Positions 1-49,607 of a stretch of 64,000 nucleotides of DNA are shown one piece after another (the first letter of the stretch is position 1; each line of letters opens with the position of its first letter). The stretch is from a virus, in IMG/VR virus record IMGVR_UViG_3300020112_001619, one strand, 5' to 3'. Below the pieces are notes generated by a model that had not been told where the DNA came from, ran no database searches, and saw only the letters and a program-made list of their open reading frames with translations. The translations under genes and the position numbers were made by a program.

Positions 1-183
1 TTCACGCCCAAAAGGCACAATACTTGAAACATCTTTAGGATTAGGTATTGTATGTGATACAGGTGATTTTGCAAAAACCAATTCAAAACAAATAGATATT
101 GCCACAAATTGGTAATTCACGATAAGATATTGAACGGAGAGCTGGTTTTATCTAGCTCTCTTTTCATTAAGATAGGAGAAAAT

Positions 184-10328: not shown

Positions 10329-11609
10329 ATGGATCAAAATCATGAACCATTAGCATCCAGAATGCGACCTACAAGTCTTGATAATTTTATTGGTCAAAAA
10401 CATATCGTAGGTGAAAACACATTACTTAGACGAATGGTAAAAGCTGATCAATTAAAAAGTATGATACTTTATGGTCCACCTGGTACTGGTAAGACAAGTA
10501 TGGCTAATGTAATAGCTAACACAACAAATGCAGAATTCTGTCAAATTAATGCCACCATATCAAACAAAAAAGAAATGGAAGAAGTTGTAAAATTTGCTAA
10601 AGAACGATTAGAATCAGAAGATAAACAGACCATTTTGTTTATTGATGAAATCCATAGATTCAACAAGGCACAACAGGATTTTCTGTTACCTTATGTTGAA
10701 AATGGCACTCTAATCTTAATAGGAGCAACAACAGAAAATCCATTTTTTGAAGTCAATAAAGCACTTCTATCAAGATCTACAATCTTTGAACTCAAGCCTT
10801 TAACTGTCGAAGATTTAGGTGAGCTTTTAAGATTAGCAATCTCTGATAAAGAACGTGGATATGGTAATTTAGACATTGATATCTCAGATGCTGCAATCAA
10901 TTTTATAGCTGATATGAGTTCAGGTGACATCAGACATGCTTATAACAGTTTGGAATTAGCTGTTATAACAACAACACCTGATGAATCAGGAAAAATCACA
11001 ATTGATTTAGATGTCGCACAAAACTGTATTCAGAAAAAATTATTGAATTATGACAGAGATGGTGATATGCATTACGATACAATCTCTGCATTCATAAAAT
11101 CAATGAGAGGTTCAGATCCTGATGCAGTTATGTACTATCTTGCAAGATTAATTGAATCTGGAGAAGACATTAAATTTATTGCAAGAAGAATTATGATACA
11201 TGCTGCTGAAGATGTAGGCTTAGCCGATCCAATGGCACTTGTGGTTGCAACCAATGCATCACTTGCTGTTGAAAGAATCGGTATGCCTGAAGGACGAATC
11301 ATCTTAGCAGAAGCAGCACTCTATGTTGCCAGAGCACCAAAATCAAATTCAAGCTGTGTAAGTATAGATAATGCGATGAAATTGGTATCATTCGCAGGTG
11401 ACTATGATATACCAGCATATTTGAAAGATGCTCATTATAAGAGTGCTTCAAAATTAGGTCATGGAATTGGCTATAAATATCCACATGATTATCCGAATGG
11501 ATGGGTTGATCAGCAATACCTTCCTGATAAACTTGTAGGATTTAAAGGCAACATTTACGAAAAGAAACCAACAGATGATGCATATTTTAAAAAAGTTAGA
11601 GGCGAGTAA
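10329..11609 (+). CDS. rarA: replication-associated recombination protein A (RarA/MgsA) AAA+ ATPase, copy 1
   Basis: MRPTSLDNFIGQKHIVGENTLLRRMV...LYGPPGTGKTS and Walker B ILFIDEIHRFNKAQQD. C-terminal MgsA_C-like helical domain (YDxxxDxHYDxISAFIKSMRGSDPDA). Confidence 0.85.
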   Translation: MDQNHEPLASRMRPTSLDNFIGQKHIVGENTLLRRMVKADQLKSMILYGPPGTGKTSMANVIANTTNAEFCQINATISNKKEMEEVVKFAKERLESEDKQTILFIDEIHRFNKAQQDFLLPYVENGTLILIGATTENPFFEVNKALLSRSTIFELKPLTVEDLGELLRLAISDKERGYGNLDIDISDAAINFIADMSSGDIRHAYNSLELAVITTTPDESGKITIDLDVAQNCIQKKLLNYDRDGDMHYDTISAFIKSMRGSDPDAVMYYLARLIESGEDIKFIARRIMIHAAEDVGLADPMALVVATNASLAVERIGMPEGRIILAEAALYVARAPKSNSSCVSIDNAMKLVSFAGDYDIPAYLKDAHYKSASKLGHGIGYKYPHDYPNGWVDQQYLPDKLVGFKGNIYEKKPTDDAYFKKVRGE

Positions 11610-16402: not shown

Positions 16403-16846
16403 ATGTACAAAATGATATATGCAAATAATAAAAAAGTGTATTTCGACTATTTTATTGAAGACAAGTTTGAAGCTGGTATTGCTCTTGTTGGTACAGAAGT
16501 AAAAGGCTTAAAAACAAAAGGCTGCAGTATTAAAGAATCATATATTGATATCGTAAATGGCGAAGCATATATCATTCATATGCATATTGCTCATTATGAA
16601 CAAGGTAATATCTTTAACACTGATCCATTTAGAACTCGTAAATTATTGCTTCATAAACAGGAAATCAATAAACTTTTAGCTAAAACAACTGAAAAAGGCT
16701 ATACAATTGTTCCAACATCTGTTTACGAAATAAATGGTAAAATTAAAATCGAAATAGCGTTAGCTAAAGGTAAACACAATTATGACAAGCGAGCTTCTCT
16801 AAAAGAAAAAACAATTAAAAGAGAAATCGAAAAAGAGAGGTATTAA
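16403..16846 (+). CDS. smpB: SsrA-binding protein SmpB
   Basis: Near-canonical SmpB: AGIALVGTEVKGLK, IAHYEQGNIFNTDPFRTRKLLLHKQEINKL, YTIVPTSVY, KIEIALAKGKHNYDKR. Length 147 aa. Confidence 0.9.
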   Translation: MYKMIYANNKKVYFDYFIEDKFEAGIALVGTEVKGLKTKGCSIKESYIDIVNGEAYIIHMHIAHYEQGNIFNTDPFRTRKLLLHKQEINKLLAKTTEKGYTIVPTSVYEINGKIKIEIALAKGKHNYDKRASLKEKTIKREIEKERY

Positions 16847-17541: not shown

Positions 17542-19365
17542 ATGCCAAAAATTGCATGTACCGACCATTTAGGTAATGAATTTAAAAGTATTCAGAGTAT
17601 GTGCGATTATTGGCATATATCTCTAACAACTTATTCAAAACGAAAAAAACTTGGTTATTCTTTAGAAGATTGTTTAAATCACAAAAAATTATCAAAAGCA
17701 AAACCTGCTTTTGATCATCTAGGTAATAAATTTATATCAATAGATGCTATGTGTGATCATTATCACATTTCACGTTCAACATTTGAAAACCGCTTAGCTA
17801 GACATTGGCCATTATGTGAAGCTCTTACTAAAGAAAGATACAATAATTATTCTAAAGATAAAATATTGGATCATAAAGGTCAAGTTTTTGCTACTAAAGA
17901 TCAGTTAGCAAGTGCTTACGGTATATCAAGAATGACATTAGATGCCAGATTACGTAAAGGTATGAGTTTAGAAGAAGCTTTAACAACGCCTTTAAGAACC
18001 CACGGCTATACTGATCATTTAGGGAATTATTTTAAAAATCAGCATGAAATGGCTGAATTTTGGCATATTAATGAATCAACACTTGCTTTAAGACTTCGTA
18101 AAGGATTGTCTATAGAAAAAGCTCTTGAGGTTGTATCAATCGAAGTTACTGATCATAAGGGTATAACTTATCATTCTATGACTGCTATGTGTGATGCTTA
18201 CGAAATTTCACGATCAACAGTTGAACGAAGATTAGCTAACAGATGGTCACTTGAAGAAGCACTAACTTATCCATCCACAACACATAAAAAATTCAAAGAT
18301 CATTTAGGTAAAGAGTATAAGACTTTTGGATTAATGTGTAAAGCATGGAACATGCCAGATTCAACAGTTCAAAACAGATTATATAAGTTAGGATATTCAC
18401 TAGAAGATGCTTTAACAAAACCAACAAATACTCAAAATACAGTAGGTAAAACTTGTAAAGATCATTTAGGGAACGAATATCAATCAGTAGCAACTATGTG
18501 TTGTAATTATGGCTTACCTAGAAACGTATTTCATAGGAGAATAAAAGATAGTTGGGATTTAGAAAAAGCATTAACAACACCACCATCACGAGCAAACGGT
18601 CAAGGTAAAGTTATTTACGATCACAAAAAGAATGCTTATTCATCTGTTGGTGAAATGTGCAAAGCTTATGGAATTGATTTTGCAATGTATGGCTCCCGCA
18701 TTCGTCAAGGATGGTCATTAGAAAAAACACTCACAACGCCGCCTGAAGAAATACAAATAGGTAAAAAAGAATGTGTAGATCACAAAGGAAATCATTTTAA
18801 GTCACAAGCAGAAATGATGCGTTTTTGGGGTGTAACAAAAGATCAACTAAGATCAAGAATTGAGCTTGGCTGGACTTTAGCTGAAATCTTAGAGTCTCCT
18901 GCTCATCAAAGTCATAAAAGACCATGTGTTGACCATCTCGGTAAAAAATGGGCATCAAAAGAAGAAATGCTTGCACATTATGGTGTAAGTGGTCCAATTT
19001 TCAATCGAAGATTAAATGTTATGGGCTTATCATTAGAAGAAGCTTTAACAGGACATTCTCTTCATGCAAATCAGATGACTGATCCTTTAGGAAATTTCTT
19101 TGAATCAGTTTCTGATATGTGCGACGCTTGGGACACACCAACAGCCACATTTTACCATTGGTATAACAAATTATATCCAAACAACTTAAGAATGGCTCTC
19201 GTAAGACCAAAAACAAATTGGTCATATAAAGATGTAAAAATCATTAAAACTATTAATAAAAAGTTCTATGAGGTAATGATAAACAATCACACAGCAATAT
19301 GGACTCAAGAACAAATATGTGATTATTACATTAATAACTTTAAACCACATATCGAACCTAAATAG
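17542..19365 (+). CDS. tandem helix-turn-helix-like (NUMOD1-like) repeat protein, paralog 3 (about 11 repeats; 607 aa)
   Basis: Eleven consecutive units DH(L/K)GNxFxSxxxMCxxYxISRSTxxxRLxxGWSLEEALTxP. Distinct C-terminal domain (IWTQEQICDYY) shared with the 22763 paralog. Stop lies 10 nt upstream of the sigma factor start. Confidence 0.65.
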   Translation: MPKIACTDHLGNEFKSIQSMCDYWHISLTTYSKRKKLGYSLEDCLNHKKLSKAKPAFDHLGNKFISIDAMCDHYHISRSTFENRLARHWPLCEALTKERYNNYSKDKILDHKGQVFATKDQLASAYGISRMTLDARLRKGMSLEEALTTPLRTHGYTDHLGNYFKNQHEMAEFWHINESTLALRLRKGLSIEKALEVVSIEVTDHKGITYHSMTAMCDAYEISRSTVERRLANRWSLEEALTYPSTTHKKFKDHLGKEYKTFGLMCKAWNMPDSTVQNRLYKLGYSLEDALTKPTNTQNTVGKTCKDHLGNEYQSVATMCCNYGLPRNVFHRRIKDSWDLEKALTTPPSRANGQGKVIYDHKKNAYSSVGEMCKAYGIDFAMYGSRIRQGWSLEKTLTTPPEEIQIGKKECVDHKGNHFKSQAEMMRFWGVTKDQLRSRIELGWTLAEILESPAHQSHKRPCVDHLGKKWASKEEMLAHYGVSGPIFNRRLNVMGLSLEEALTGHSLHANQMTDPLGNFFESVSDMCDAWDTPTATFYHWYNKLYPNNLRMALVRPKTNWSYKDVKIIKTINKKFYEVMINNHTAIWTQEQICDYYINNFKPHIEPK

Positions 19366-22762: not shown

Positions 22763-23905
22763 ATGACACCACATACAGCAAAACAACATGAAGACCATTT
22801 AGGTAATGTATATCCATCTTTTGCAGACATGTGTAAAGCATATAATAAACCTAGCAATACTGTAAGAAACAGACTTGATAGAAATTGGACATTAGAGCAA
22901 GCATTAACAATTGATAATAAAAATACAGCTGTTAAAGTTAAACCTATCAAAATATGGACTGATCATTTAGGTAATGAATTTCCAAGTGTTCGAGCTATGG
23001 CTGAACATTATGGGATTACTGAAAAAATATTTTGGTCAAGAAAAAGAATACTAAATTGGCCACTAGAAAAAATCTTGACAACACCAATTCAAGATATGGA
23101 CGCTCCGGCAAATGCCATACCAATTGTTTGTAATGGTATTGAATTTAAATCAGTAAATGCATTATGTAAATACTATTGTATACCAAGAACAACTTTTAAA
23201 TTAAGGTTACAACAAGGATATACACCAGATGAAGCCGTAAATATTAAACCGAAAAAAACAAAAGGTTTGGTAAAAACAAAAATAACAGATCCCTGGGGAA
23301 AAGAATTTCCATCTTTGGCTGCATTATGTAAAGAATATCATGTCACTAAAGATTTAGTGAGATCACGATTAGATTTAGGCTGGACTATGGAAAAAATTTT
23401 AACAAATCCTCAAGTCATAGATCCACACAAACCATGTATCGGACCTGACGGAAAACAATACGATGGTTTTAAAATTATGGCAGAATCTTTTGGATTATCT
23501 GAATCAACACTCAGAGGTCGATTAGCTCAAGGATATTCATTAGAAGATGCTATTTATAATTGGGAAAATAACATATTTCATCCTCAAACAGATCATCTTG
23601 GGAATAAATTTAATGCTACAGCTGATATGATGCTTTACTGGAATATTTCAAATAGTTCATATTGGGCTTATATGAAAAGACGAAATATTGTAAATCCAAC
23701 AGATAAAGATAAAGCAAAAGTATTAGACGTTATCAAGCCAAAAAAGAAATTTGCAGATATTACAATTGTAAAAAAAGTTGCAAAAAATTATTATGAGATA
23801 TGTAAAGATAATAAAAATTATATTTGGTCACATGACCAAATATGGAATTATTATCGAAGCACTATCAATATAGTATTTGAGAAAGGAGACTTATGCAATA
23901 CGTAA
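22763..23905 (+). CDS. tandem helix-turn-helix-like (NUMOD1-like) repeat protein, paralog 4 (about 7 repeats)
   Basis: Repeats DHLGNxxPSxxxMCKxYxxxxxTxxxRLxxxWTLEQALT. C-terminal NYIWSHDQIWNYY is related to the 17542 paralog. Confidence 0.6.
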   Translation: MTPHTAKQHEDHLGNVYPSFADMCKAYNKPSNTVRNRLDRNWTLEQALTIDNKNTAVKVKPIKIWTDHLGNEFPSVRAMAEHYGITEKIFWSRKRILNWPLEKILTTPIQDMDAPANAIPIVCNGIEFKSVNALCKYYCIPRTTFKLRLQQGYTPDEAVNIKPKKTKGLVKTKITDPWGKEFPSLAALCKEYHVTKDLVRSRLDLGWTMEKILTNPQVIDPHKPCIGPDGKQYDGFKIMAESFGLSESTLRGRLAQGYSLEDAIYNWENNIFHPQTDHLGNKFNATADMMLYWNISNSSYWAYMKRRNIVNPTDKDKAKVLDVIKPKKKFADITIVKKVAKNYYEICKDNKNYIWSHDQIWNYYRSTINIVFEKGDLCNT

Positions 23906-32559: not shown

Positions 32560-33543
32560 ATGTACTCAGAAGACGTTAAATTTGCCAGAACAATTATCAA
32601 TATTGTTTGTGGCGTAATTCTTGGACTTTTTGTTATTATCTGCATTGCCAGATGTTTATTTCAGGTAAGGGAAACCGAATCAGTAGTTGTTACAAATTTT
32701 GGTGTACCTAGACTTGTTGAAGAAAAAGGTTTGCAGACAAAGAAACCTTGGGAGAAAAAGACCAGAGTTGATACAACTGTTAAAAGTTTATCTGTTGGAT
32801 ATTATCAGGATCAGGAATCGGGTGAATATCACGAAATTCCTTCTGAATCAATCATGATTACATCTGATTTTAACCTGTTAGATATTGATTTCGATATTCA
32901 GTATCGTGTCAGTGATCCTATTCAGTATTTATATGCATCAGATGATCCTGATACAATTCTTAAAAATATTGCGATGTCAAGCATTAGAAGTGTAGTGTCA
33001 GCATACTCTGTAGATAGCGCTATTACTACAGGTAAATCAGGTATTCAGGCTGCTGTTAAACAGTCAATTATTGATGAACTCAACGAAAGTAACATTGGAA
33101 TTACTCTTGTAGATGCTGTAATCCAGGACGTAGAACCACCTACAGTAGAAGTAAACAATGCATTTAAAGAAGTAGAAACAGCTAAGCAGGGTAAAGAATC
33201 TGCACTCAATGAAGCACGAGCATATCAGAATCAGGAAATTCCTAAGGCTGAAGCTGATGCAGATAAGATTGTTCAGGAAGCTGAGGCTACAAAAGCAGCA
33301 CGTATCAATGAAGCAAATGCTGAAGTTGCTGCACTTAATGCGAAATTTGAAGAATACAAGAGATATCCTCTAATCACTAAGCAGAGAATGTTCTATGAAA
33401 CAATGCAGAAAGTACTTCCATCTGTACGAATCCTTATTGATACAGAAGGAGACGGTGTTTATAAGCATTATAGCTTAAGTGATTTAGAAAAAAATACTCA
33501 GAAAGTAACACCTATTATTGAAACTGACGGAGGCGAACAGTAA
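32560..33543 (+). CDS. SPFH/band-7 protein, HflK-like
   Basis: N-terminal TM, SPFH domain, and Ala/Glu-rich coiled coil (KAEADADKIVQEAEATKAARINEANAEVAALNAKF) typical of HflK. Confidence 0.7.
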   Translation: MYSEDVKFARTIINIVCGVILGLFVIICIARCLFQVRETESVVVTNFGVPRLVEEKGLQTKKPWEKKTRVDTTVKSLSVGYYQDQESGEYHEIPSESIMITSDFNLLDIDFDIQYRVSDPIQYLYASDDPDTILKNIAMSSIRSVVSAYSVDSAITTGKSGIQAAVKQSIIDELNESNIGITLVDAVIQDVEPPTVEVNNAFKEVETAKQGKESALNEARAYQNQEIPKAEADADKIVQEAEATKAARINEANAEVAALNAKFEEYKRYPLITKQRMFYETMQKVLPSVRILIDTEGDGVYKHYSLSDLEKNTQKVTPIIETDGGEQ

Positions 33544-34538
33544 TGTCAAACGAAACAAAAGTTAAATTCAGACTGCCACTTCTGGTATGGATTATTATTA
33601 TCGGTATTATTGGTGCAATCATCTTTTCAATGTGCACATATACAACAAAAGCTGATGAATATGCTGTTAAATATCAATTCGGTAAAATTGTCGATATTGA
33701 AACTGAACCAGGCTTAAAGACAAAGACACCTTTCATTCAGTCAATCAAAAAGATCAAAAAGCCATCTCGTCTTTATGACTTAAGTGCTTCAGAAGTCATT
33801 ACTTCAGATAAGAAGAACATGATTATTGATGCTTTTGTTGTTTGGCAGATTAATGATCCTAAGATTTTCACATCATCACTTAATGCATCTGATACAACAG
33901 CACAGTCTCGACTTGACACAATTGTATTCAATGCAATTAAAACAACAGTCTCTAGTATGACTCAGGACGAAGTAATTGCATCAAGAAATGGTACAAAAGA
34001 TATTGAAGTTGTAGAAACAACACTTGATGATGTAACACTTCAGGAAGCAGCTACTACCGATGAAACAAAAGACGTAAAAATTATTTCTATTTCAGATAAA
34101 TTAATGGCTGCTATTGGTAATCAGTGTGATCAGTATGGTATTAAGGTCACAAATATTGAAATTAAGATTTTGGACCTTCCTGATGAAAATAAAAATGCTG
34201 TATATAATCGAATGATTACTGAAAGAAAGAATATTGCAACAGCATATACAGCTCAGGGTCAGTCTGAAGCTCAGAAGATCAAGAATGATACTGATAAGCA
34301 GACATCAATCATGCGATCAGAAGCTGATGCCACAAAGGCTAAAACAATTGCTGAAGGTGAAGCTGAATACATGAGGATTCTTGCAAGTACATACAATAAT
34401 CCAGAAAAGGCAGATTTCTATCTGTACACAATGGAGCTTGATACATTGAGAGAATCACTATTAAAAAATCCATATGACAATGTTCTTATTATTGATAAGA
34501 ATAGTCCATTTGCTTCATTGTTTAATGGTATTGAATAA
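33543..34538 (+). CDS. SPFH/band-7 protein, HflC-like
   Basis: N-terminal TM, SPFH domain and coiled coil. Translationally coupled to the upstream HflK-like gene (ATG overlaps its TAA). Confidence 0.7.
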   Translation: MSNETKVKFRLPLLVWIIIIGIIGAIIFSMCTYTTKADEYAVKYQFGKIVDIETEPGLKTKTPFIQSIKKIKKPSRLYDLSASEVITSDKKNMIIDAFVVWQINDPKIFTSSLNASDTTAQSRLDTIVFNAIKTTVSSMTQDEVIASRNGTKDIEVVETTLDDVTLQEAATTDETKDVKIISISDKLMAAIGNQCDQYGIKVTNIEIKILDLPDENKNAVYNRMITERKNIATAYTAQGQSEAQKIKNDTDKQTSIMRSEADATKAKTIAEGEAEYMRILASTYNNPEKADFYLYTMELDTLRESLLKNPYDNVLIIDKNSPFASLFNGIE

Positions 34539-35229: not shown

Positions 35230-35850
35230 ATGGAAACACCAATTTACGGATCTGCTATGCCACATAGCGCAAATCTTGTACCAACTGTAATCGAACAGAC
35301 AAATAAGGGAGAAAGAGCATTTGATATCTTTTCCAGACTCAATAAAGAAAGAATCATCTTTTTAACTGGTGAAGTAAACGATGCTATGGCTAGTATCATT
35401 CAGGCACAGCTCTTGTTCCTTGAATCTGAAGATCCTGATAGTGATATTTACATTTATATCAACAGTCCTGGTGGATCAGTAACAGCCGGTATGGCTATTT
35501 ACGATACTATGAATTTCATCAAGCCTGATGTCGGTACAATTTGTACAGGACTTGCAGCATCTATGGGTGCATTCTTACTCTGTGCAGGAGCCGATGGAAA
35601 GAGAATCTGCTTACCAAATGCTGAAGTAATGATTCATCAGCCTTTAGGTGGATCTCAGGGACAGTGTACAGATATGCTTATTTCAGCAAGACATATTGAA
35701 AGAACAAGACATAAGCTTGAATCTATTATCGCTGCTAAGTCTGGAAAGACAATTGAAAAAGTTCATGAAGCATGTGAAAGAGATAATTGGCTTACTGCAG
35801 AAGAAGCAAAGGAATTCGGACTTATTGATGAAATCAAGGTTCATAGATAA
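35230..35850 (+). CDS. clpP: ATP-dependent Clp protease proteolytic subunit ClpP
   Basis: Catalytic triad context GLAASMGAF (Ser), MIHQP (His) and the Asp region. Typical length 206 aa. Confidence 0.9.
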
Positions 35851-35973
35851 TCCATAAATCCAAAAATAAATAATCATTTATAATGGGCATAAACAATGAG
35901 TTTATGTCCATCAATAAGTGATTATTCACTTATATTCAAATATCAAAACCTAAACAAAAAGGAGAAACAGCTT

Positions 35974-37206
35974 ATGTGTATTATTTGTGGTAACAACACA
36001 AAAAATGACTTAAACATTAAAACATATCAGGGAGAAGTATTTAGTATTTGTCCTAGTTGCTTTGAAGGTATTTTAAGACAGCTTACAAAATCAAATATGA
36101 TCGGAATCCCTGTTTATGCTTCTGGTGATGAGGACGATGATTACGAAGATTTCTACTATGAAACAGACGAAGATTTTAAGAATGCACTTAAAAAGCTTAC
36201 TCCAAAGCAGATTAAGGCAATTTTAGATCAGTATGTTATTGGACAGGAAGATGCAAAAACTGTCGTATCTGTAGCAATCTATAATCACTACAAAAGAATC
36301 ATTCATGATAGAACAGATATTCAGAAGTCAAATATCTTAATGGTAGGACCAACTGGCGTAGGTAAGACTGAAATTGCCAGAACTATCGCAAAGATTTTAG
36401 ATGTACCATTCGTAATTGCAGATGCTACTACATTGACAGAAGCAGGTTACGTCGGTGATGATGTTGAAAACATCCTATTAAAGCTTCTTCAGGCCGCCGA
36501 TTTCGATACAGAAGCTGCTGAGCATGGTATCATCTACATAGACGAAATTGATAAAATCGCTCGTAAAGGTGAAAACGTATCAATCACTAGAGATGTATCT
36601 GGTGAAGGTGTACAGCAGGCACTACTTAAACTTATTGAAGGTGCAAAAGTAAACGTGCCAACTCATGCTGGTAGAAAGCATCCTAGAGAAGAATGTGTCG
36701 AGATCGATACATCAAATATCTTATTTATTTGTGGTGGTGCATTTGAATCACTTACAATGGATAAAACAAAACATAATTCTTTAGGTTTTGTGACACCTGA
36801 ATCTGAAGACAAAAAGAAAAAGATCGATGCTAAAGATCTTATGAAACAGGGGCTTATTCCTGAACTTATCGGAAGATTACCTATTGTCGTAAAACTTGAT
36901 GAGTTATCAGAAAATGACTTAAAGCGTATCTTAGTTGAGCCAAAAAATAGCATCTTAAAGCAGTACACTCAGCTCATTGAACTTGATGATGTAAAGCTTA
37001 CAGTTGATGATTCAGCAATTGATTTTATTGCTAATAAGGCATACACAAATGAAACTGGTGCCAGAGGTTTAAAAGCTATCATGGAAGACTTCATGACTGA
37101 AATCATGTTTGAGATTCCAGATGACATGACCGTTGGTGAAATCATTTTAACAGCCAATGAAGATAACACAGAACTTACTTATAAGAGAATTGAAAGAGTA
37201 GCTTAA
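35974..37206 (+). CDS. clpX: ATP-dependent Clp protease ATP-binding subunit ClpX
   Basis: N-terminal C4 zinc finger (CIICGN...CPSCF), Walker [25 protein letters not shown] motif. ATG at 35974 with GGAG ribosome-binding site (track start 35896 rejected). Confidence 0.9.
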
Positions 37207-39208: not shown

Positions 39209-39553
39209 ATGAATCCTGCGATCAGAAAAACAAACAATGCCGATAAAAGCTTATCGATAATAATTGAAAATGATTATTATAAAATAAGTGTTGTATATAC
39301 AGGTAATTATGATGATGATTTAAAAAACAATATGATTAATCAAGACAATATTGGTGTGTATATTATCCCATTTGATAAAAACTATCCTAAAATAAGATGT
39401 GTATATACAAATGTTGATAAACCAATTGATAAAATCATTACAGAAGGGTGTGTAGGCCCTGATACCGTAAATGCAATACATGCAGCTCAGGAAATGTTAA
39501 CATGTACAAAAACAATTATGAAACAATATTTTCCTGATATCTGGACAAATTAA
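39209..39553 (+). CDS. hypothetical protein
   Basis: ATG immediately follows the upstream stop. Confidence 0.4.
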   Translation: MNPAIRKTNNADKSLSIIIENDYYKISVVYTGNYDDDLKNNMINQDNIGVYIIPFDKNYPKIRCVYTNVDKPIDKIITEGCVGPDTVNAIHAAQEMLTCTKTIMKQYFPDIWTN

Positions 39554-39750
39554 AAAAAATCATAAGAGAGGTAACACATTATGGAAAAAATTTGGGGATA
39601 ACTATTATTAACTTAAATTAAAAAAATCATAAGAAAGGTATTACATTATGGAAAAAATTTGGGGATAACTATTATTAACTTAAATTAAAAAAATCATAAG
39701 AAAGGTATTACATTATGGAAGAAATTTGGGGCTAATTATTATTAACTTAA
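39549..39750 (+). repeat. three tandem direct repeats of 67-68 bp abutting the 5' end of the tmRNA gene
   Basis: Copies at 39549-39616, 39617-39683 and 39684-39750. Copy 2 is ATTAAAAAAATCATAAGAAAGGTATTACATTATGGAAAAAATTTGGGGATAACTATTATTAACTTAA. Each holds a Shine-Dalgarno-like GAAAGG plus the mini-ORF ATG GAA (A/G)AA ATT TGG GG(A/C) TAA. Confidence 0.9.
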
Positions 39751-40124
39751 GGGCTTGCAAAGGTTTCGACTGGGTATTATAAGTATCTCAAGCATGTAGA
39801 GGATGATGGACACCTCTTAAATCCGACATCAAAGAATAATCGCTAACGATTATGAAGAGCTCTGCGCAGCCTAGTAGCGCCAGCTAGTGTAAACTAGCCG
39901 TCAACTCATATGAGTATCACCGCTGTATCTCATATGGGCAATAGTAGCGGTTAAGCGATGAGTGAACTGAGATGGAACTCACCGACGAAAACTCCGGCGT
40001 CTTAGTGTGTGTATAGAAGCGTGTTGGTTTGCTAATTACAGGCACTATAAAGGGATAACCAAATAAACATGTAGAAAAAGATATGGAGATATTTAGGACA
40101 GGGGTTCGACTCCCCTCAGGTCCA
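39751..40124 (+). ncRNA. ssrA: tmRNA (SsrA), standard one-piece form; predicted tag peptide ANDYEELCAA
   Basis: 5' GGGCUUG-CAAAG-GUUUCGACUGGG matches the tmRNA 5' consensus. The 3' T-arm AGGGGTTCGACTCCCCT plus CAGGTCC pairs 7/7 with the 5' GGGCTTG (two G-U pairs). Tag reading frame is GCT AAC GAT TAT GAA GAG CTC TGC GCA GCC TAG TAG at 39842-39877, preceded by AATAATC as in the E. coli AAUAGUC resume context. Confidence 0.8.
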
Positions 40125-40216
40125 CTAGCCAAAGTAATTTGGTGAACAATTTTATAAAGTCCATAAGGTCTTTATAGATACTTATGGCATATCCCCCCCC
40201 AATAGAGACAAATATT

Positions 40217-40252
40217 GAAACTATCGTGCGTTAAAACATGATAGTTTTTTTA
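40217..40252 (+). terminator. rho-independent terminator downstream of tmRNA
   Basis: GAAACTATC-(loop)-GATAGTTT followed by TTTTTTATTT. Preceded by hairpin CCATAAG...CTTATGG and a C8 tract at 40193-40200. Confidence 0.7.
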
Positions 40253-40297
40253 TTTGCCTTCTATTAACAATTGTTTTCAAAGAAAAGGAAATGAAAA

Positions 40298-40477
40298 ATG
40301 GAAAGAAATGTTTACATCGCCAGAATTATTGGATGTCTTATTGCAATCATATTTATTGTCAGTGCAAGATTTAGAGTAGATTGTGATTTAACATCTATAA
40401 CAATCACTATTACAAATATATCATTGCTATTGATATTGCATTCAATTGGCGGATTAATGAAATACCATTCTCTTTAA
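40298..40477 (+). CDS. small membrane protein (59 aa; not in ORF track)
   Basis: AAGGA ribosome-binding site then ATG at 40298. Hydrophobic IARIIGCLIAIIFIVSA and ITITNISLLLILHSIGGL. Confidence 0.3.
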   Translation: MERNVYIARIIGCLIAIIFIVSARFRVDCDLTSITITITNISLLLILHSIGGLMKYHSL

Positions 40478-40495
40478 TTTTTTTATGTTAAAATA

Positions 40496-40524
40496 TTGAA
40501 TAATCTACAATTATGTAGTACAAT
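40496..40524 (+). promoter_or_regulatory. near-consensus sigma-70 promoter (TTGAAT-17-TACAAT) driving the tRNA-like RNA block
   Basis: TTGAAT at 40496-40501, exactly 17-nt spacer, TACAAT at 40519-40524. Next terminator is at 40898-40933. Confidence 0.6.
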
Positions 40525-40624
40525 GATTAAGCGATAAACTATTCATGTTGAGGCGGCCGGTACACTTATGTGCCAATAACAAATTGTAATAATAAAAATT
40601 ACGCCGGACGCTGACTACATTTTA

Positions 40625-40693
40625 CTCTTAAATGCTTAAAAGGTAAGCACATATTACATGATATGTAAGTCGGTTCGACTCCTACTTAAGAGT
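40625..40693 (+). tRNA. tRNA-like element (candidate anticodon CAT) with non-canonical anticodon loop
   Basis: Acceptor CTCTTAA/TTAAGAG pairs 7/7. D-arm GCTT-AAAAGGT-AAGC. T-arm GTCGG-TTCGACT-CCTAC. Anticodon helix ACATAT/ATATGT has only a 6-nt loop TACATG and a 2-3-nt variable region, so function as a tRNA is uncertain. Confidence 0.35.
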
Positions 40694-40810
40694 TTCGAGT
40701 TTGATAAATTAAAAATTGCAAATTGCTCCCCCTTTTACTTTTTATGATTTATTAAATTCGACACACGATTATACCCAGGTCGTGGATTAAATTTTTCAGT
40801 TACTAAAAAG

Positions 40811-40871
40811 GCCGGGTGGTGCTTGTGGGGTGCATACCCACATGAGAGGGGTTCGACTCCCCTAACCCGAA
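40811..40871 (+). ncRNA. D-armless tRNA-like or tmRNA-3'-like element carrying the identical T-arm of the tmRNA
   Basis: AGGGGTTCGACTCCCCT is identical to the tmRNA T-arm. Hairpin TGTGGG-GTGCATA-CCCACA has an anticodon-loop-like GCA. There is only a 5-bp acceptor-like helix CGGGT/ACCCG and no D-arm. Confidence 0.3.
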
Positions 40872-40897
40872 AGGGTGGATATTTTTGATTGAAAAAA

Positions 40898-40933
40898 GGT
40901 GATATGTAGTTACTACATATGTACCTTTTTTTT
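40898..40933 (+). terminator. strong rho-independent terminator
   Basis: GGTGATATGTAG-TTA-CTACATATGTACC followed by TTTTTTTT. Confidence 0.75.
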
Positions 40934-40972
40934 AGCATATAAAGCATTTTTCAAGAAAGGATAATGTCATAA

Positions 40973-43024
40973 ATGGATCCAAATACTAATCATGACGATG
41001 AACTATTAGCATCGTTAACAAAAAGAATTTATCATTTAGAACAGGAAGTTATCAAACTAGGTGGATCACCATATGTTGAAACTGTTGAAAAACCAAAACC
41101 AGAAATAAACAATACTGTTCAAATGCAAAATACACCATATGTTCCAAAACCTGAACCTGTATTAGAAAATATGGTATATGCACAACCAAAACCACAAAAT
41201 ATAACAACACCTAAAACTTCTGTTAAAAAGAATCAGAATATTGAAAATAAAATTGGTAAAAATCTGATGGCAATTATGGCATCAGTTCTTATATTCATAA
41301 GCTTAATACTATTTGGTAGCATCGCATTTATGTATCTATCAAACTTTGCAAAAGCAGGAATTATGTATTTAATCAGTATAGCAATCGCTATATTTGGTAT
41401 TAAAAAGTCACCAAAACGAAATGCTTTACCTGATAAGCAATATAAATACAAAACATTCTATACGTCATTGGCTGCATGCGGTATTGGTGCAACTTATATA
41501 TCAAGTTTAATATCATATTTCATATTTAATATATTTAACTTACCATTATTTATTATTGCAATTATAGCCTGGCTTGTTGCAACAATGATACTTGCTTATA
41601 ATTATTCAAATATTTTTGTATATATTTGCAATATCGGTTTGATCATAGCCACATTATTAATAACTTTCCAATTTGGAAACAGCTTATTCGGATTCATTAT
41701 TTATACAATATGTTTAGTTGCATTGTATATTATAAGACATAGCGATAATTTCAACAAAGATTGTTTTTATTTCATGCAATATCCAATCATGTTCATAATT
41801 TTAACAGCAATCTCTAATGGCTTTATATCATATATCATAATTGCATTTATCACTATTGGTGTATTTATTGCAGCCAATATAATCTATGATATGCAGCCTA
41901 AACACATAACAACAAATATATTAACATTAATACTGAACACTTTTGCAATTATATATTTTGTATCATCTAAAAACACAAAAGTATTTGATACAAAAGAACT
42001 ATTCATATACATTAGTATTATTATGGCAATCACCATAAGTATTGTGTACTATATGAGATATAAAAATAAAATCAAAGCATTACAGTATACAGCTTACGTA
42101 ATTATGTTAGTAATCTCATTAGCCACATTCGCTTCAACAACTGTTTATGATTATGTTGGATTCTTTCCATTTGCAATCCTTATGTTCTTAGGATTCATAA
42201 CAAAAGATGTATATTTAAGAATTGGTGGATATGCTTCATTATTCTTAACATTAAATGCCAGCATATTAAACGAAAACGAATATGCCTTCTATATGGTATG
42301 TATTATGTTTTTAATAGCAGCATATGTACTATCAGTTATCACTAATTACACTTGTGCAGATAAATATGCAATAACAGGGATATTCTTAATTGCAACACTA
42401 TCATTCTTAAATGAAATTGATTGTTCATATATTATAACATTTAGTATATTTGCAATAATTTCAATGATTATGAATACCAAATGGTATCATATGAATTACG
42501 AAACACATAAAGAAGAAATAGCATCAAAAATTATTGGATATGTGTTAAATAGTATATTAATGTTAACAGGTCTTATTGGCATAATTGCTGAAGGATTAAC
42601 ACCATCAATTATCGAACTTTCTATTGTAACGTTGATAACTGTTGTATTATACTGTATTAATACAAAAAGATTATTCAATCTTACATTACCTGAAATGCTC
42701 ATAGGTATATACATATGTTTAAAATTTACGATCCTAATATTAGCAATCTTAATAAGATTTGAAGCAGCATCATTTGTAATTTCAATTGTAGGAATATTAA
42801 TAGCGATTGTATGTATCATATTAGGTTTCAAAGTGAAACATAAATCATTTCGATTATACGGCCTCATTGTATCATTAATATCAGTGGCAAAACTGATGTT
42901 ATTTGATATTCAATATAGTTCAACATTACTTAGACCTGTTGGATTTTTCATTGCTGGAATTCTATGTTTCGCTATCAGTTTTACATATTCAAAACTAGAA
43001 AAGCAATCGAATAAAGGAGACTAA
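40973..43024 (+). CDS. large polytopic membrane protein (about 20 TM helices; DUF2339-like architecture)
   Basis: About 110-aa soluble N-terminus with coiled-coil-like segment, then continuous hydrophobic helices along 570 aa. Confidence 0.5.
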   Translation: MDPNTNHDDELLASLTKRIYHLEQEVIKLGGSPYVETVEKPKPEINNTVQMQNTPYVPKPEPVLENMVYAQPKPQNITTPKTSVKKNQNIENKIGKNLMAIMASVLIFISLILFGSIAFMYLSNFAKAGIMYLISIAIAIFGIKKSPKRNALPDKQYKYKTFYTSLAACGIGATYISSLISYFIFNIFNLPLFIIAIIAWLVATMILAYNYSNIFVYICNIGLIIATLLITFQFGNSLFGFIIYTICLVALYIIRHSDNFNKDCFYFMQYPIMFIILTAISNGFISYIIIAFITIGVFIAANIIYDMQPKHITTNILTLILNTFAIIYFVSSKNTKVFDTKELFIYISIIMAITISIVYYMRYKNKIKALQYTAYVIMLVISLATFASTTVYDYVGFFPFAILMFLGFITKDVYLRIGGYASLFLTLNASILNENEYAFYMVCIMFLIAAYVLSVITNYTCADKYAITGIFLIATLSFLNEIDCSYIITFSIFAIISMIMNTKWYHMNYETHKEEIASKIIGYVLNSILMLTGLIGIIAEGLTPSIIELSIVTLITVVLYCINTKRLFNLTLPEMLIGIYICLKFTILILAILIRFEAASFVISIVGILIAIVCIILGFKVKHKSFRLYGLIVSLISVAKLMLFDIQYSSTLLRPVGFFIAGILCFAISFTYSKLEKQSNKGD

Positions 43025-46826: not shown

Positions 46827-49607
46827 ATGAGGATAAAAAAATTAGAACATAATGAAAAAACATATGATGATCTAAGACCATATATTCTAAGAAAAGAAAA
46901 TTGTTGCGTTGTAAATCCTTGTGGTTCAGGAAAAAGCACAATTATAGCTTCCATCATTGAAGAATTTTATGAATTAGGTATTATTGTCATCACAAAACAA
47001 GCAAATGCAAAAGCTTATTATTACGAAAAATGCCCAATATTCGAACAACAGAATATACCAGTTATAACATACAATAGATTACATGATCTATATAAAAAAG
47101 ATAAATTAAAGAGCTTGAAAAACATCAAAATCTGTATTTTTGATGAAGCTCATTATATAGGAGCAAATAGTTGGTATGATTCTGTTACTGAATTATTAAA
47201 AATAACAGAAGCTACAGCAATCGGTGTTACAGCAACACCACAACGATACGAAGATCAAGGATCAGATCGATCAATTATTGATTTCTTTTCAGGTAATTCT
47301 GTAGGAAATTATACAGCAAAAGACCTTCAGAGAAAAGGTGTATTTATTGAGCCTGAGTACATTATTACATTGGCATCACTTGATACTGAAATCAATAAAC
47401 GAATTGATAAACTGAATGAAATAGATGATCTTACGGATAAAGAACGTGAAACTTATATAAGTCGATTAAATGAATTACAGGATAACTGGGCTGAAAAAGA
47501 ATGTCCTAAAGTAGTTATGTCAAAAGTATTAGATGATTACATGTATAGACCAAATGGAAATAAAATACTTGTATTTTCTAAAAATATTGAAGCAATTGCT
47601 AAAGACATGAAATATGTTAAAGATATTCTTGAATCAATATATCCTGACAAAAAGATTGGACTATATGAATACACTCATTTTAGCAGCGAATCTGTCTTAC
47701 AAGAATTTTTAACAAATGATACTAACTATATCAACGTTATATTTTCTGTTAATAAAATCTGTGAAACAATTCATATTCCAGATCTAAACGTACTAATATT
47801 TTTAAGAAGTTCTTATTCAAACAGGATCATTACACAACAGGCTGGCCGAGTTAATGATATTAATAATCCATACAAAAGTTTAATTCTCGATATGGTAGAC
47901 AATTTATCAAAATTTGGCAAAAAGAATAATCTTGATTCATTAGAAAATATTCAGAAAACTGTTAAAAAAGAACAGCAAGAAAATAAAACAACTGTACGAT
48001 TAAATCTATCTTATATGTATGGTTCTATTGGGTTGTTTAATAAAATTGACAGTTTAACAAAAAAATATCAGCTATATGATTATATGGGTGCAACAGGTAC
48101 AATCACTCAGTTATGTACTATTTTCAGAAAAGACAAAGATGAAGTTATGAAACTGATCAAAGATAATCAGTTATCAGTGTATGATGCATTAGACACTGTA
48201 CCTAGTCAAAGAAAATGGTCAAATGATATGTTAAATGATGATTCATATGATTTACTTACAAATATGGATTATACATTAACACCTGAAGATAACGAATTAG
48301 TCGAAAAATTTTACCCATACATTCAAGATATTGCAAAAACAAAAAATTGTACAGATGAAGATATTATTGGAAATGCTGCATTATATCTATGTAATATTGC
48401 ACATAAATACAATACTGAAAACATAACAACAAGTCAAAACATGTATTTCAGAAACAGTATTGCTAATTTCATAGTGAGATCTATGCGAAAAATGTATGAT
48501 CATAATGATATGATAGAAGATTCACTATCAGATGTCGTATCATCTGGCGAGTATGTATCAAAATATGCTGAACTTTCGGAATTAAAAGATATCATATTTG
48601 AATTATTAAATACTTTAACTGAAAAAGAACATCGTGTTATTGCTATGAGATTTAATATCTATGGTAATGGACCACAATCATTATTCAGTGCAGGACGTAT
48701 ACTTGGTGATGTATCTAGAGAACGAATAAGACAAATAGAAGCAAAAGCTATACGAAAATTACGACATCCTAGTAGATCAAGAAAATTAAAAGGTTTCTTA
48801 AATGGCGAAGAATTATCAGAAATTGAACCATATACTTATCTAACATATATAGGATCAGAAAATTTACCTGAAGCAAATGCTGAAGTATTCAGATGGATTA
48901 ATGAACATATCAATATGGCTATTTTGAAATACGGTCCTAATTATAAAGAAGAGTTTACCATCGTTCAAAAATCTGATACAAAATGTGAACCTGTTACAGA
49001 AAAAGAGTCAGTAGAATCTTTAAACAAACGCTTAAATAAAGTAGTTCTTAAAACTGCTGAAAAAAGAGTTGGTATTCGTATTAATAGACCAGTTAAATAC
49101 GACAAAATCACAATAAAAAAGTATCGAGGTGATCAATATCAAATTGGAAAGACACAAGCAATTGACAACATACAGTCTGTTACAACATATGAATACATTG
49201 ACGCTATTGACGCCACAGTTGCTTCAACATTATCAAATCTGCTGAATAACAATGAGAATCCTTTCTGGATTCATGACGCATTATTCAAACCTTTTGAAGA
49301 TGTAAAATATAAACATATCTTACATCCTGCTGTAAAAGAGATTTTAAAACAAAATCAAATAATTTCACCTGCATTCTTAATAACAAAGACAAGAGATGAA
49401 ATTCACGAATTATTAACAGTAGGTGCAAGACTTAAAGCGGCTCAATGCTACAAAGTAGATGCTTTATTATCAGATGATGATATTTGGTTTATGAAAAACT
49501 TCGGTGAAATCATAAAAATATTAGAAGGAAGCGTTGAAACATTAGAAGCAATCAAAAGAGAAGCATTATCACTTTTATATGATCAAAACATCGAAATTGT
49601 TTGTTAG
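46827..49607 (+). CDS. fusion protein: SF2 helicase-like N-terminal domain plus sigma-70 region 2/region 4 domains plus about 290-aa unknown C-terminal extension
   Basis: Helicase motifs [26 protein letters not shown] are paralogous to the 1996 protein. Sigma region 2-like [18 protein letters not shown]...[17 protein letters not shown]. Region 4.2 [53 protein letters not shown] nearly matches the RpoD consensus. Confidence 0.7.

Follow-up and report, generated by a model that had tools for sequence, protein, structure and literature searches.

A conserved tRNA-like element with a capping hairpin at the acceptor position, downstream of a phage-type tmRNA gene

The segment at 40.5-40.9 kb of the window (the whole 64-kb stretch of viral DNA analyzed here) contains Element 2, a tRNA-like structure whose reality and conservation are supported by sequence comparison with a related contig. 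Element 2 aligns to tRNA positions 10-65 and ends in a short capping hairpin, P3. The reading favored here, tentatively and at slightly less than an even chance, is that Element 2 is a non-chargeable tRNA-derived mimic within a remnant tRNA array, and that the nearby Element 1 is a decaying tRNA. Two copies of Element 2 are known, one in the window and one in contig SRR28408344_539 (L001). L001 is the sole syntenic relative found, among Logan/SRA assemblies and rumen or gut metagenomes, and was located using the downstream DUF2339 gene as an anchor.

Architecture and conservation of Element 2

The features of the segment and its surroundings are collected in Table 1. Element 2 had been described in the initial annotation as lacking a D arm. 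A reduced D arm is present, with equivalents of G18-G19 in its loop, and it is the acceptor stem that is missing. The GTGCATA loop noted earlier does sit on a stem, of 5-8 bp, at 40825-40841. This loop has U33 but carries G32 and U37, unlike a canonical anticodon loop, and the Levitt-pair positions are likewise non-canonical. The T stem is perfect, and the GGUUCGA T loop is found in both the window and L001. Both elements of the segment possess a tRNA-type T arm (5-bp stem, UUCRANN) and a D-loop GG. P3 starts one nucleotide past the T stem, at the position of the acceptor arm. Structure scans, which had reached about 0.69 Mb with the second one, found a GNRA hairpin placed immediately after a T arm in the window and L001 only.

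Table 1. Positions of the features in and around the segment
Feature	Position	Strand	Basis or detail
SmpB	16403-16846
ClpP	35230-35850
ClpX-like protein	35896-37206
tmRNA gene	39751-40127	+	ARAGORN (its end: 40125); Rfam RF00023, 146.7 bits
T arm of tmRNA	40099-40115		holds first copy of GGTTCGACTCC
Terminator hairpin of tmRNA unit	40217-40248	+	12-bp stem, then T run
Promoter-like match, TTGAAT-17-TACAAT	40496-40524	+	9/12 positions; weak
G+C-rich branched hairpin (GGCG.GCCGG ... CCGG.CGCU)	40545-40620	+	fold z = -1.8 only
Element 1, defective cloverleaf	40625-40694	+	minimum-energy fold, z = -3.3
Hairpin H1, long, A+U-rich, with C-rich apical motif CUCCCCCU	40695-40761	+	fold z = -4.0
Hairpin H2, loop with UAUACCCA	40764-40784	+	folding
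Element 2, reduced D arm: stem GGC/GCU, 8-nt loop CGGGUGGU	40810-40823	+	R1 alignment
Element 2, anticodon-like arm: 5-bp GUGGG/CCCAC, 7-nt loop GUGCAUA	40825-40841	+	model alignment
Element 2, variable-loop equivalent: 5 nt, AUGAG	40842-40846	+	tRNA model alignment
Element 2, canonical T arm: AGGGG UUCGACU CCCCU	40847-40863	+	model alignment
Element 2, capping hairpin P3: ACCC GAAA GGGU	40865-40876	+	fold
Intrinsic terminator	40892-40933	+	A tract, bulged hairpin of ~12 bp, T8
DUF2339 membrane protein, downstream gene	40973-43024	+	Pfam PF10101; homologues P0001-P0024

Covariance model R1 was built from 75 phage tRNAs, which themselves score 42-78 bits. Window Element 2 matches R1 at 40810-40866 with 18.5 bits (E about 0.003) and with both acceptor strands deleted, leaving no acceptor stem in the alignment. 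Because that stem is missing, Element 2 has no standard 3' end to aminoacylate. A candidate acceptor pairing in the window, CGGGU/ACCCG, is not preserved in L001. No 5' acceptor strand was found farther upstream, and L001 lacks an equivalent of the outer stem that an A run and a U run could form in the window. The idea of a circularly permuted tRNA gene was also rejected, as the order of the arms is wrong and the cap is not followed by a D arm.

Neither element is a standard tRNA, as had been proposed. Element 1 scores 17.9 bits on R1, and a genuine tRNA scores 68.7 bits. ARAGORN finds neither element with default or -ps settings; both are called only at -ps80, Element 1 as tRNA-??? with anticodon (ca) and Element 2, at 40795-40871, as tRNA-Cys(gca). 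Rfam scans at gathering cutoffs and at E <= 10 return only the tmRNA and noise, in a procedure where clan competition hides tRNA matches that score below overlapping tmRNA fragments (14 and 6.6 bits).

The two copies of Element 2 share 72% identity (z = 9.4). The neighboring coding sequence is 70% identical, whereas the adjacent spacer is near random at 59% (z = 1.9). All 13 modelled pairs hold in both sequences (26/26 cells paired); four have undergone compensatory double changes and two one-sided compatible changes. When the registers are slid by 1-3 columns, only 38-58% of cells are paired. The observed covariation values are reached by 32 of 500 shuffles, a statistic that is weak with two sequences only.

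The changes are spread over the arms of Element 2. The D-arm pairs are kept in the two copies, one of them changing from G.U to G-C. In the anticodon-like stem, one pair has gone from G-C to A-U by compensation and another from G-C to G.U. Three of the five T-stem pairs are changed on both sides in L001 (GAAGG/CCUUC) and are still paired. P3 in L001 is GCCCCC GAAA GGGGGU, two pairs longer by bases added on both strands, and the variable-loop equivalent is AGGAA. The anticodon-like loop differs in both sequence and length, being GUCAUG (6 nt) or GGUCAUGU (8 nt) in L001, and this variation argues against a mimic specific to one anticodon. Kissing between CAUG loops was considered as well, and the loops are not complementary in the window. 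The G.U pairs of Element 2 are possible on the + strand only, which argues for constraint at the RNA level. On R1, L001 159-212 scores 12.9 bits over model positions 9-65, a local match that stops short of the acceptor strands. Taken alone, window Element 2 is not more stable than its shuffles (z = -0.65), but the L001 copy is (z = -3.7).

Both elements could instead be neutral wreckage of tRNA pseudogenes, with the similarity between the window and L001 due to recent common ancestry. No canonical tRNA was found in the 64-kb window by ARAGORN or the phage-tRNA model, whereas L001 has canonical tRNAs at this locus. The scores of both elements are far lower than those of real tRNAs, Element 1 is defective at four separate points, and low-scoring tRNA-like remnants are frequent in phage tRNA arrays. 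Neutral decay does not fit the conservation of Element 2, which matches that of the adjacent protein-coding gene while the flanking spacer is almost random. Nor does it fit stem changes that are all compensatory or compatible, or a P3 difference made of paired insertions. Wreckage is thus unlikely as an account of both elements, though it carries some weight; for Element 1 taken alone, the chances are about evenly balanced.

Searches for further homologues were negative in the collections covered. Protein searches anchored on DUF2339 yielded no additional RNA homologue in GTDB genomes or IMG/VR, and an IMG/VR search with the helicase-sigma alignment yielded none either. DNA patterns of Element 2 gave only chance matches in high-G+C coding DNA of GTDB (species representatives), JGI metagenomes, and IMG/VR (searched with four patterns). 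BLAST against phage and plasmid collections returned nothing or generic T arms only. The other DUF2339 loci, L002-L008, have no RNA upstream, and the helicase relatives L021, L070, and L071 have no tRNA-like genes within 10 kb.

Genome setting, segment boundaries, and Element 1

The window looks like part of a huge-phage or megaplasmid genome that encodes its own SmpB, ClpP, ClpX, and tmRNA. Large plasmids and huge phages are known to carry tmRNA, SmpB, and tRNAs (PMC7162821). ARAGORN calls a single tmRNA, and the 203-aa protein encoded upstream of it has only itself as a homologue. Nearly every gene in the window is on the + strand. The window ORFs read normally under code 11, and no recoding is therefore needed.

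The segment had been proposed as an independent RNA unit running from a near-consensus promoter to a terminator. No + strand ORF of at least 30 aa lies between 40478 and 40972, in agreement with that proposal, and the only ORF there encodes 70 aa on the minus strand (40735-40947). The very strong terminator is also borne out, as a long hairpin with T8 whose arms covary in L001 and L002, where it is likewise kept upstream of DUF2339. The promoter fares less well. Matches of 9/12 quality occur 15 times in 2 kb, compared with 11.2 +/- 3.5 times in shuffled sequence, and the sequence of L001 does not extend over this region. Since the match is not above chance, an independent transcription unit is unproven. 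Two other hairpins share loop motifs with L001. The CUCCCCCU loop motif of H1, present once in the window, also caps a hairpin in L001 at 41-90, and UAUACCCA is likewise within a hairpin loop there. Both motifs were considered as recurrent promoter motifs, and they do not recur as such in the window.

The position of the terminator raises the possibility of a cis-acting leader or attenuator of DUF2339, in which the tRNA-like fold would control read-through of the hairpin at 40892-40933. A gap of 40 nt, in which no convincing promoter is seen, lies between the end of the terminator and the start codon of DUF2339, and both terminator and leader are kept in L001 and L002. In L001, however, Element 2 and the terminator are set apart by a complete tRNA-Pro, so Element 2 is not tied to the terminator, and the L002 copy of the terminator comes after a protein-coding gene, where no tRNA-like element is present. 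Element 2 persists in the window although the tRNA-Pro is absent. Moreover, no Rfam model of a T-box or other riboswitch matches, no T-box motif is found, and no alternative antiterminator pairing is conserved. Attenuation by Element 2 is accordingly regarded as quite improbable.

Element 1 had been described as a cloverleaf with good D and T arms, a 6-nt anticodon loop, and a short variable region. The independent fold, the acceptor stem, the 6-nt loop (UACAUG, in place of the 7 nt of a tRNA), and the 3-nt variable region all stand; the T arm is less good than described, since its stem carries one C.U mismatch. The acceptor stem is 7-8 bp (CUCUUAA/UUAAGAG), as in a tRNA. The T loop is GGUUCGA and the D loop contains GG, while position 8 is A rather than U. 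The slot of Element 1 is occupied in L001 by the 3' half of a canonical-looking tRNA, which reaches 22.8 bits on half of the model. Given this shared slot, Element 1 is probably a pseudo-tRNA of the CAU type, that is, a decayed tRNA gene.

Phage tRNAs with altered anticodon loops are known, and one or both elements might still decode as unusual tRNAs, for instance of a frameshift, suppressor, or Ile2/Met CAU kind. The full acceptor stem, D-arm GG, and TTCGA T loop of Element 1 would suit this role, as would the CAU present in all three anticodon-like loops. Against it, Element 1 combines the 6-nt loop, the 3-nt variable region, the T-stem mismatch, and A8 with its low R1 score, and ARAGORN recognizes it only at the 80% threshold, with a 2-nt anticodon. 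Element 2 is entirely without an acceptor stem. A decoding role is very improbable for either element. The suggestion of a suppressor tRNA also fails for Element 2, whose anticodon-like loop is not conserved and contains no stop-codon anticodon.

The T-arm sequence shared with the tmRNA

The 64 kb contain exactly three copies of GGTTCGACTCC, at 40103, 40672, and 40850, where 0.12 are expected by chance. The T arm of Element 2 is identical to that of the tmRNA over 17 bases, AGGGGTTCGACTCCCCT, and over 19 of 20 with flanks. Both observations had been made in the initial annotation, which proposed that the tmRNA T arm had been reused. This proposal does not hold. The 17-mer is a common T-arm sequence of tRNAs and tmRNAs and is found in many phage tRNAs (BLAST, phage collections), so that its sharing indicates no special reuse of the tmRNA arm. 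The L001 copy, furthermore, has the different and compensated T stem given above.

Element 2 is also not a tmRNA fragment in any fuller sense. Identity between the two stops exactly at the T stem, and the acceptor 3' strand differs, being CAGGUCCA in the tmRNA and AACCCGAA in Element 2. The match of the tmRNA model RF00023 to Element 2 is confined to the T-arm fragment (14 bits, model positions 347-363). No open acceptor stem with G3.U70, tag reading frame, or pseudoknots were found in Element 2.

Genes for tmRNA are classic integration targets, and the repeats could be DNA-level scars or attachment sites, left as duplicated ssrA 3' ends by an integrase directed at the tmRNA gene. The three copies within 800 bp of the tmRNA gene, and the 19/20 repeat of its T arm, are what such an origin might leave. 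The identity, however, ends at the T stem without reaching the acceptor 3' strand, and no integrase is encoded among the neighboring genes. The compensated T stem of L001 and the G.U pairs point to constraint on RNA rather than DNA, and the 17-mer is generic. The att-scar explanation is largely refuted and is given next to no chance.

Proposed explanation and comparison with known systems

Under the favored reading, the segment would be the remnant of a small tRNA-gene array that follows the tmRNA gene. Element 2 would be transcribed on the + strand together with the neighboring tRNA-like genes. In the window the terminator would define its 3' end, and in L001 RNase P cleavage at the start of the tRNA-Pro would do so. 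P3 is predicted to stack on the T arm in place of an acceptor stem, and the D-loop GG to dock on the T loop, giving an RNA with a tRNA-like L shape that could not be aminoacylated. Such an RNA would not decode codons. As a stable mimic, it may occupy or recruit a factor that recognizes the tRNA elbow or body; candidates include an enzyme of modification or processing, a host nuclease that targets tRNAs, and a translation-associated factor.

A broader claim is that Element 2 founds an undescribed class of capped, acceptor-less tRNA mimics on huge phages or megaplasmids of Lachnospiraceae-like hosts, carried beside their own tmRNA-SmpB-ClpXP set. Members would act as non-chargeable decoys or adaptors for a tRNA-recognizing factor such as a host tRNA-targeting defense nuclease or a tRNA-processing or modification enzyme. 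This extension is distinctly doubtful.

The tRNAs of phage arrays resemble Element 2 in their position within tRNA/tmRNA clusters, and in L001 real tRNAs lie on both sides of it. Common features are the GGUUCGA T arm, a 5-bp anticodon stem, a 5-nt variable loop, and the D-loop GG. Element 2 differs in that the acceptor strands are absent and a GNRA-capped hairpin follows the T arm. It also departs from canonical tRNAs in its anticodon loop (G32 and U37 in the window; 6 or 8 nt in L001), and it scores about 50 bits lower than real tRNAs. A decaying tRNA pseudogene, by comparison, would not be expected to show the conservation with compensatory changes seen in Element 2.

The t-elements of plant mitochondria, and tRNA punctuation generally, keep an acceptor-like stem and are cut by RNase P or RNase Z. 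Element 2 is similar, in a comparison drawn from general knowledge, as a tRNA-shaped non-decoding structure beside genes and tRNAs. It differs in having an acceptor end that is closed and short (4-6 bp).

The tRNA-like domain of tmRNA shares the 17-nt T arm with window Element 2 and is encoded close to it, and each of the two imitates a tRNA inside a gene set for translation rescue. In the tmRNA domain the acceptor stem is open and accepts alanine, and an anticodon arm is lacking, the reverse of Element 2. The T-arm identity between them is not conserved in L001.

In the YrlA RNAs of bacteria and phages, which are recognized by tRNA enzymes, a tRNA-like module has its acceptor stem closed into a stem-loop adjoining the T arm (PMC4201824). 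YrlA (RF02553; Chen et al. 2014, PMC4201824) is thus, like Element 2, a non-chargeable and phage-borne mimic in which the T arm is followed by a closed acceptor stem-loop. Element 2 could accordingly be a diverged Y-RNA-like RNA (YrlA/Yrn1) with a partner Ro60/Rsr encoded elsewhere in the genome. Clear YrlA-like RNAs occur in phage contigs (L065, L067, L068, and L069), one of which, L068, reaches 47 bits on the YrlA model. Some of these RNAs sit inside tRNA arrays (e.g., L069), and the RNAs, L065 and L068 among them, carry the same CCCGAAAGGG cap as Element 2. In L001, the YrlA model matches weakly and locally at 192-258 (18.8 bits, E = 0.2, compared with a gathering score of 69 bits).

That L001 match, however, takes its D arm from a genuine tRNA-Pro (71 bits), a type of false positive of which the YrlA authors warn (PMC4201824). 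YrlA has no match in the window even at E <= 10. The order of elements in YrlA is V, T, closed acceptor stem-loop, and then a full D arm; no D arm follows the capped stem of Element 2 in the window, and its D-like arm comes first, on the 5' side. YrlA also possesses a long 5'/3' Ro-binding helix with GNCGAAN0-1G and an adjoining rsr gene. No conserved 5'/3' Ro-binding stem is seen here, and the motif is missing from 40128-40972. No TROVE/Rsr protein was found among the window ORFs of >300 aa or the smaller ORFs scanned, a scan that covers the window of a genome that continues beyond it. Membership of Element 2 among the Y RNAs is improbable.

Yrn1 of Deinococcus radiodurans keeps D-loop-like features, a 5-bp anticodon-like arm, and a T arm in their natural tRNA order (PMC4201824), as Element 2 does, a likeness that also favors the Y-RNA reading. 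Compared by description, the two differ at the acceptor position, where the two termini of Yrn1 pair into the Ro-binding helix and Element 2 has a local tetraloop hairpin.

RNAs of the Element 2 type are missed by standard tRNA finders and Rfam, and capped tRNA-shaped RNAs in phage tRNA arrays merit dedicated models. If Element 2 is a mere relic, the locus is an ordinary decaying tRNA cluster. If it is a working mimic, it would point to another way in which large phages manipulate or protect host tRNA handling, beside their own ribosome-rescue and proteolysis genes. It would then be a third architecture of non-decoding bacterial and phage tRNA mimics, after the tmRNA domain and YrlA/Yrn1.

A small tRNA array upstream of the DUF2339 gene

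The RNA segment upstream of the DUF2339 gene had been described as an independent promoter-to-terminator unit. The + strand of 40478-40972 is, as claimed, without any ORF of at least 30 aa, and the proposed terminator is present. The near-consensus promoter fared less well. TTGAAT-17-TACAAT exists at 40496-40524 but matches at 9/12 positions, a quality seen 15 times versus 11.2 +/- 3.5 expected from shuffled sequence. Because such matches are equally common there, an independent promoter is not established. A relaxed Rfam scan of 40100-41000 gave no family match to the segment, only tmRNA-model fragments, of 14 and 6.6 bits, at the two T arms.

The DUF2339 protein has a homologue (56% identity) on Logan contig L001, the only syntenic relative. 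Downstream, L001 follows the window's order of RNase H, then helicase-sigma fusion. Upstream of DUF2339, 390 nt of L001 are alignable to window 40668-40972 and contain, in this order, a partial tRNA, two hairpins, a homologue of Element 2 (the second tRNA-like element), tRNA-Pro(UGG), and a terminator (see table). This order identifies the locus as a small tRNA array, in which Element 1, a defective cloverleaf, stands in for the first L001 tRNA. The tRNA-Pro is absent from the window, where the junction GGAUAU/UUUUGAUUGAA represents both ends of the L001 gene; the breakpoints lie in both acceptor strands (GGAAUAU ... UUAUUCC). Such breakpoints point either to a gene cleanly deleted from the window lineage or to one inserted in the other.

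At the other DUF2339 loci (L002-L008), protein-coding genes take the upstream place and there is no RNA; the terminator hairpin is common to L002 and the window. A role of the segment as leader or attenuator of the DUF2339 gene is highly unlikely, given that a tRNA intervenes in L001 and that L002 also contradicts it. Between the tRNA-like elements, the C-rich hairpin loops CUCCCCCU and UAUACCCA are kept in the window and L001, and the spacer around them has diverged.

Element 1 folds alone into the cloverleaf of the initial annotation (z = -3.3). Its acceptor stem is A+U-rich and 7-8 bp long, the D arm bears GG, and the T loop reads UUCGACU. Element 1 is defective in four respects: the anticodon loop has 6 nt (UACAUG), the variable region has 3 nt, the T stem contains a C.U mismatch, and position 8 is A. 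Relaxed ARAGORN calls it at the 80% threshold only, as tRNA-??? with a two-base anticodon. On R1, a covariance model trained on 75 ARAGORN-called tRNAs from phage contigs, it scores 17.9 bits; the training tRNAs score 42-78 and the L001 tRNA-Pro 68.7. The simplest reading is a decaying CAU-type tRNA, and there are about even odds that it is a neutral pseudogene. The four defects and the R1 score also make a decoding or suppressor tRNA, including a functional non-canonical Element 1, very improbable; for Element 2, the same reading is countered by missing acceptor strands and an anticodon-like loop that is not conserved.

Positions of features in the window and on related contigs
Feature	Contig	Position	Remarks
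PHROG 1065-repeat proteins	window	5439-6383; 17542-19365; 22763-23905	three paralogues
SmpB	window	16403-16846	
SPFH/Band-7 genes	window	32560-34538	two genes
ClpP	window	35230-35850	
ClpX-like AAA+ ATPase	window	35896-37206	
67-nt tandem repeats	window	39547-39750	three copies, 94% matches
tmRNA	window	39751-40127	146.7 bits
Hydrophobic ORF	window	40298-40477	59 aa, good ribosome-binding site
Element 1	window	40625-40694	
Two hairpins	window	40695-40784	
Element 2	window	40810-40876	
tRNA-Pro junction	window	40877-40895	
Terminator	window	40892-40933	long hairpin, then T8
DUF2339 gene	window	40973-43024 (+)	
Helicase-sigma fusion	window	46827-49607	926 aa
Partial tRNA	L001		3' half, canonical-looking, rest beyond contig end; 22.8 bits over half of R1
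Two hairpins	L001	41-125	loop motif CUCCCCCU; UAUACCCA exposed
Element 2 homologue	L001	159-229	
tRNA-Pro(UGG) region	L001	230-320	perfect tRNA, 3 nt past Element 2 homologue; ARAGORN, 71 bits Rfam
Terminator, then DUF2339	L001		
Three consecutive tRNA-???	L046	7425-7918(-)	
YrlA-like RNA	L068	11592-11707(-)	
YrlA-like RNA	L065	~10911-11087(-)	
YrlA-like RNA	L067	~102-381(-)	
YrlA-like RNA	L069	5537-5594(-)	
RNA of YrlA-like or permuted tRNA topology	L058	2815-2838(-)	

Structure and conservation of Element 2

Element 2 had been taken to lack a D arm. R1 aligns window 40810-40866 at 18.5 bits and L001 159-212 at 12.9 bits (model positions 9-65), and this alignment reveals a reduced D arm with a GGC/GCY stem and the loop CRGGUGGU, in which the equivalents of G18-G19 lie. 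An anticodon-like stem of 5 bp, a 5-nt variable loop, and a canonical T arm (stem of 5 bp, loop UUCGANN) follow. Both acceptor strands are deleted in the window alignment, and the local L001 match ends before them. One nucleotide past the T stem is a GAAA-capped hairpin, P3 (ACCC-GAAA-GGGU in the window, GCCCCC-GAAA-GGGGGU in L001). Two scans found a T arm and GNRA hairpin in natural tRNA order only in the window and L001 copies of Element 2. The first required a perfect T arm with a GNRA hairpin at most 2 nt on; the second, looser, covered ~0.69 Mb of the window and fetched loci.

In both sequences, the D-like, anticodon-like, and T stems form standard pairs throughout (13 pairs, 26/26 cells). 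Both bases have changed in four pairs, three of them in the T stem and one in the anticodon-like stem; two further pairs carry a compatible one-sided change. When the 3' partners are slid by 1-3 columns, pairing falls to 38-58%. RNAalifold agrees with the pairing, the G.U pairs are sensible on the + strand only, and P3 is two pairs longer in L001, with both strands extended. Of the 13 positions in the 5' segment GGCCRGGUGGUGC, 12 are identical. Overall identity is 72% (z = 9.4), equal to that of the DUF2339 coding sequence (70%); the adjoining spacer is hardly alignable (59%, z = 1.9). The window copy on its own is not unusually stable (z = -0.65). Because of the paired changes and the contrast with the spacer, Element 2 is, on the basis of two sequences, considered a real RNA-level element under constraint. 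The same evidence weakens the reading of Element 2 as a neutral pseudogene, which is unlikely. Only two copies are known; searches of GTDB representatives, JGI metagenomes, and IMG/VR yielded no further ones.

Element 2 is a tRNA body without acceptor strands, with a tetraloop-capped hairpin set against the T arm, and it is retained in the window despite the missing tRNA-Pro. P3 would stack upon the T arm in place of the acceptor stem, and the D-loop GG would dock to the T loop. The product would mimic a tRNA in its L shape but offer no standard acceptor end for aminoacylation. It would share a + strand transcript with its tRNA-like neighbours, its 3' end being set by the terminator in the window and by an RNase P cut at tRNA-Pro in L001. 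The anticodon-like loop varies (GUGCAUA in the window, GUCAUG in L001), so the surface that matters is more likely the elbow or body than the anticodon. A functional, non-chargeable tRNA mimic is a plausible reading of Element 2, with a chance put slightly below even.

The shared T arm and the genomic setting

The window contains GGTTCGACTCC three times only, at 40103, 40672, and 40850 (0.12 expected), in line with the three copies first noticed. Reuse of the tmRNA T arm had also been proposed. The identity holds over 17 nt in the window, and Element 2 repeats 19/20 bases of the tmRNA T arm, but the sequence is generic and the L001 T stem differs (GAAGG/CCUUC). A 25-mer at the tmRNA 3' end that includes the T arm is found on 30 IMG/VR contigs, where it belongs to phage tmRNAs and tRNA-Ala genes. 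In BLAST of Element 2 against GenBank phages, the T arm alone matches (tRNA-Glu, tRNA-Asp, tRNA-Gly, and tmRNA genes). These three observations lessen the weight of the identity, which most likely reflects a widespread T-arm sequence and no designed reuse; local homogenisation in the window may contribute. That the repeat is an attachment-site scar is barely credible: identity ends at the T stem, L001 has a different T stem, constraint acts on RNA pairing, and no integrase lies near the RNA segment.

The tmRNA is the sole RNA gene of the 64 kb according to ARAGORN and Rfam. Its tag peptide, ANDYEELCAA, ends in LCAA, not LAA. Together with SmpB, ClpP, and the ClpX-like ATPase, it forms a complete trans-translation and degradation set on one element. 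Two SPFH/Band-7 genes are directly upstream of clpP. The 67-nt repeats abut the tmRNA gene on its upstream side, and each contains a Shine-Dalgarno-like AAGAAAGG, then a six-codon mini-ORF, ATGGAAAAAATTTGGGGATAA (MEKIWG-stop; MEEIWG in copy 3). The hydrophobic ORF, which separates the tmRNA terminator from the RNA unit, matches nothing in Pfam and is without a counterpart in L001.

The window has a G+C content of 31%, and almost all of its ORFs lie on the + strand. NrdD, an NrdG-like activase, thymidylate synthase, dUTPase, and guanylate kinase are accompanied by Sir2, two MgsA ATPases, PIF1 helicase, an RpoD-like sigma factor, a helicase-sigma fusion, a lysozyme of the phage tail, and further proteins that belong to phage families. 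This content matches the description of huge phages and large plasmids with tmRNA, SmpB, and tRNAs (PMC7162821). Homologues of its proteins are found in Lachnospiraceae MAGs and in unbinned assemblies of gut or rumen type. The fusion joins a DEAD/ResIII helicase to sigma-70 region 4 and has >100 homologues, on contigs up to 589 kb; IMG/VR yielded none. On L070, a related contig of 290 kb, are genes for a D5-like primase, RecJ, and another sigma-r4 protein. The carriers seem to belong to a lineage of large mobile genomes that is poorly catalogued. The three paralogues with repeats of PHROG 1065 / HNH-like helix-turn-helix modules include one (17542-19365) that overlaps the start of the RpoD-like sigma gene.

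Relation to known tRNA-like RNAs

Five IMG/VR phage RNAs missed by ARAGORN (see table) have a YrlA-like or circularly permuted tRNA topology. Some, e.g., those of L069 and L058, lie within tRNA arrays. The order is T arm, acceptor stem closed by a GAAA, UUCG, or CCA-containing loop, and canonical D arm, and a long outer helix encloses some of them. The L068 RNA scores 47 bits on Rfam YrlA (gathering score 69), and the L069 loop encodes ACCA ahead of the linker.

A Y-RNA-like identity for Element 2 would account for its T arm followed by a closed stem, a YrlA hallmark (PMC4201824), and the genuine YrlA-like RNAs of L065, L067, L068, and L069 share the CCCGAAAGGG hairpin cap. It is nonetheless quite unlikely. 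The window has no YrlA match in the relaxed Rfam scan, and an 18.8-bit L001 match takes its D arm from tRNA-Pro. The Ro-binding helix and motif are both absent, the arm order is unlike that of YrlA, and no TROVE gene was found among the scanned window ORFs.

The C-rich loops of the hairpins between the elements are reminiscent of C-rich seed loops in Firmicutes small RNAs or, alternatively, of features of tRNA-operon spacer RNA. The 6-nt anticodon loop of Element 1 recurs in the tRNA-??? genes of L046, a high-G+C phage contig, which ARAGORN calls by default with two-base anticodons, yet the phage is unrelated. Element 2 matches no described family; closest to it are degenerate phage tRNAs and the tRNA-like modules of the bacterial Y RNAs YrlA and Yrn1, and it would belong among tRNA-derived mimics.
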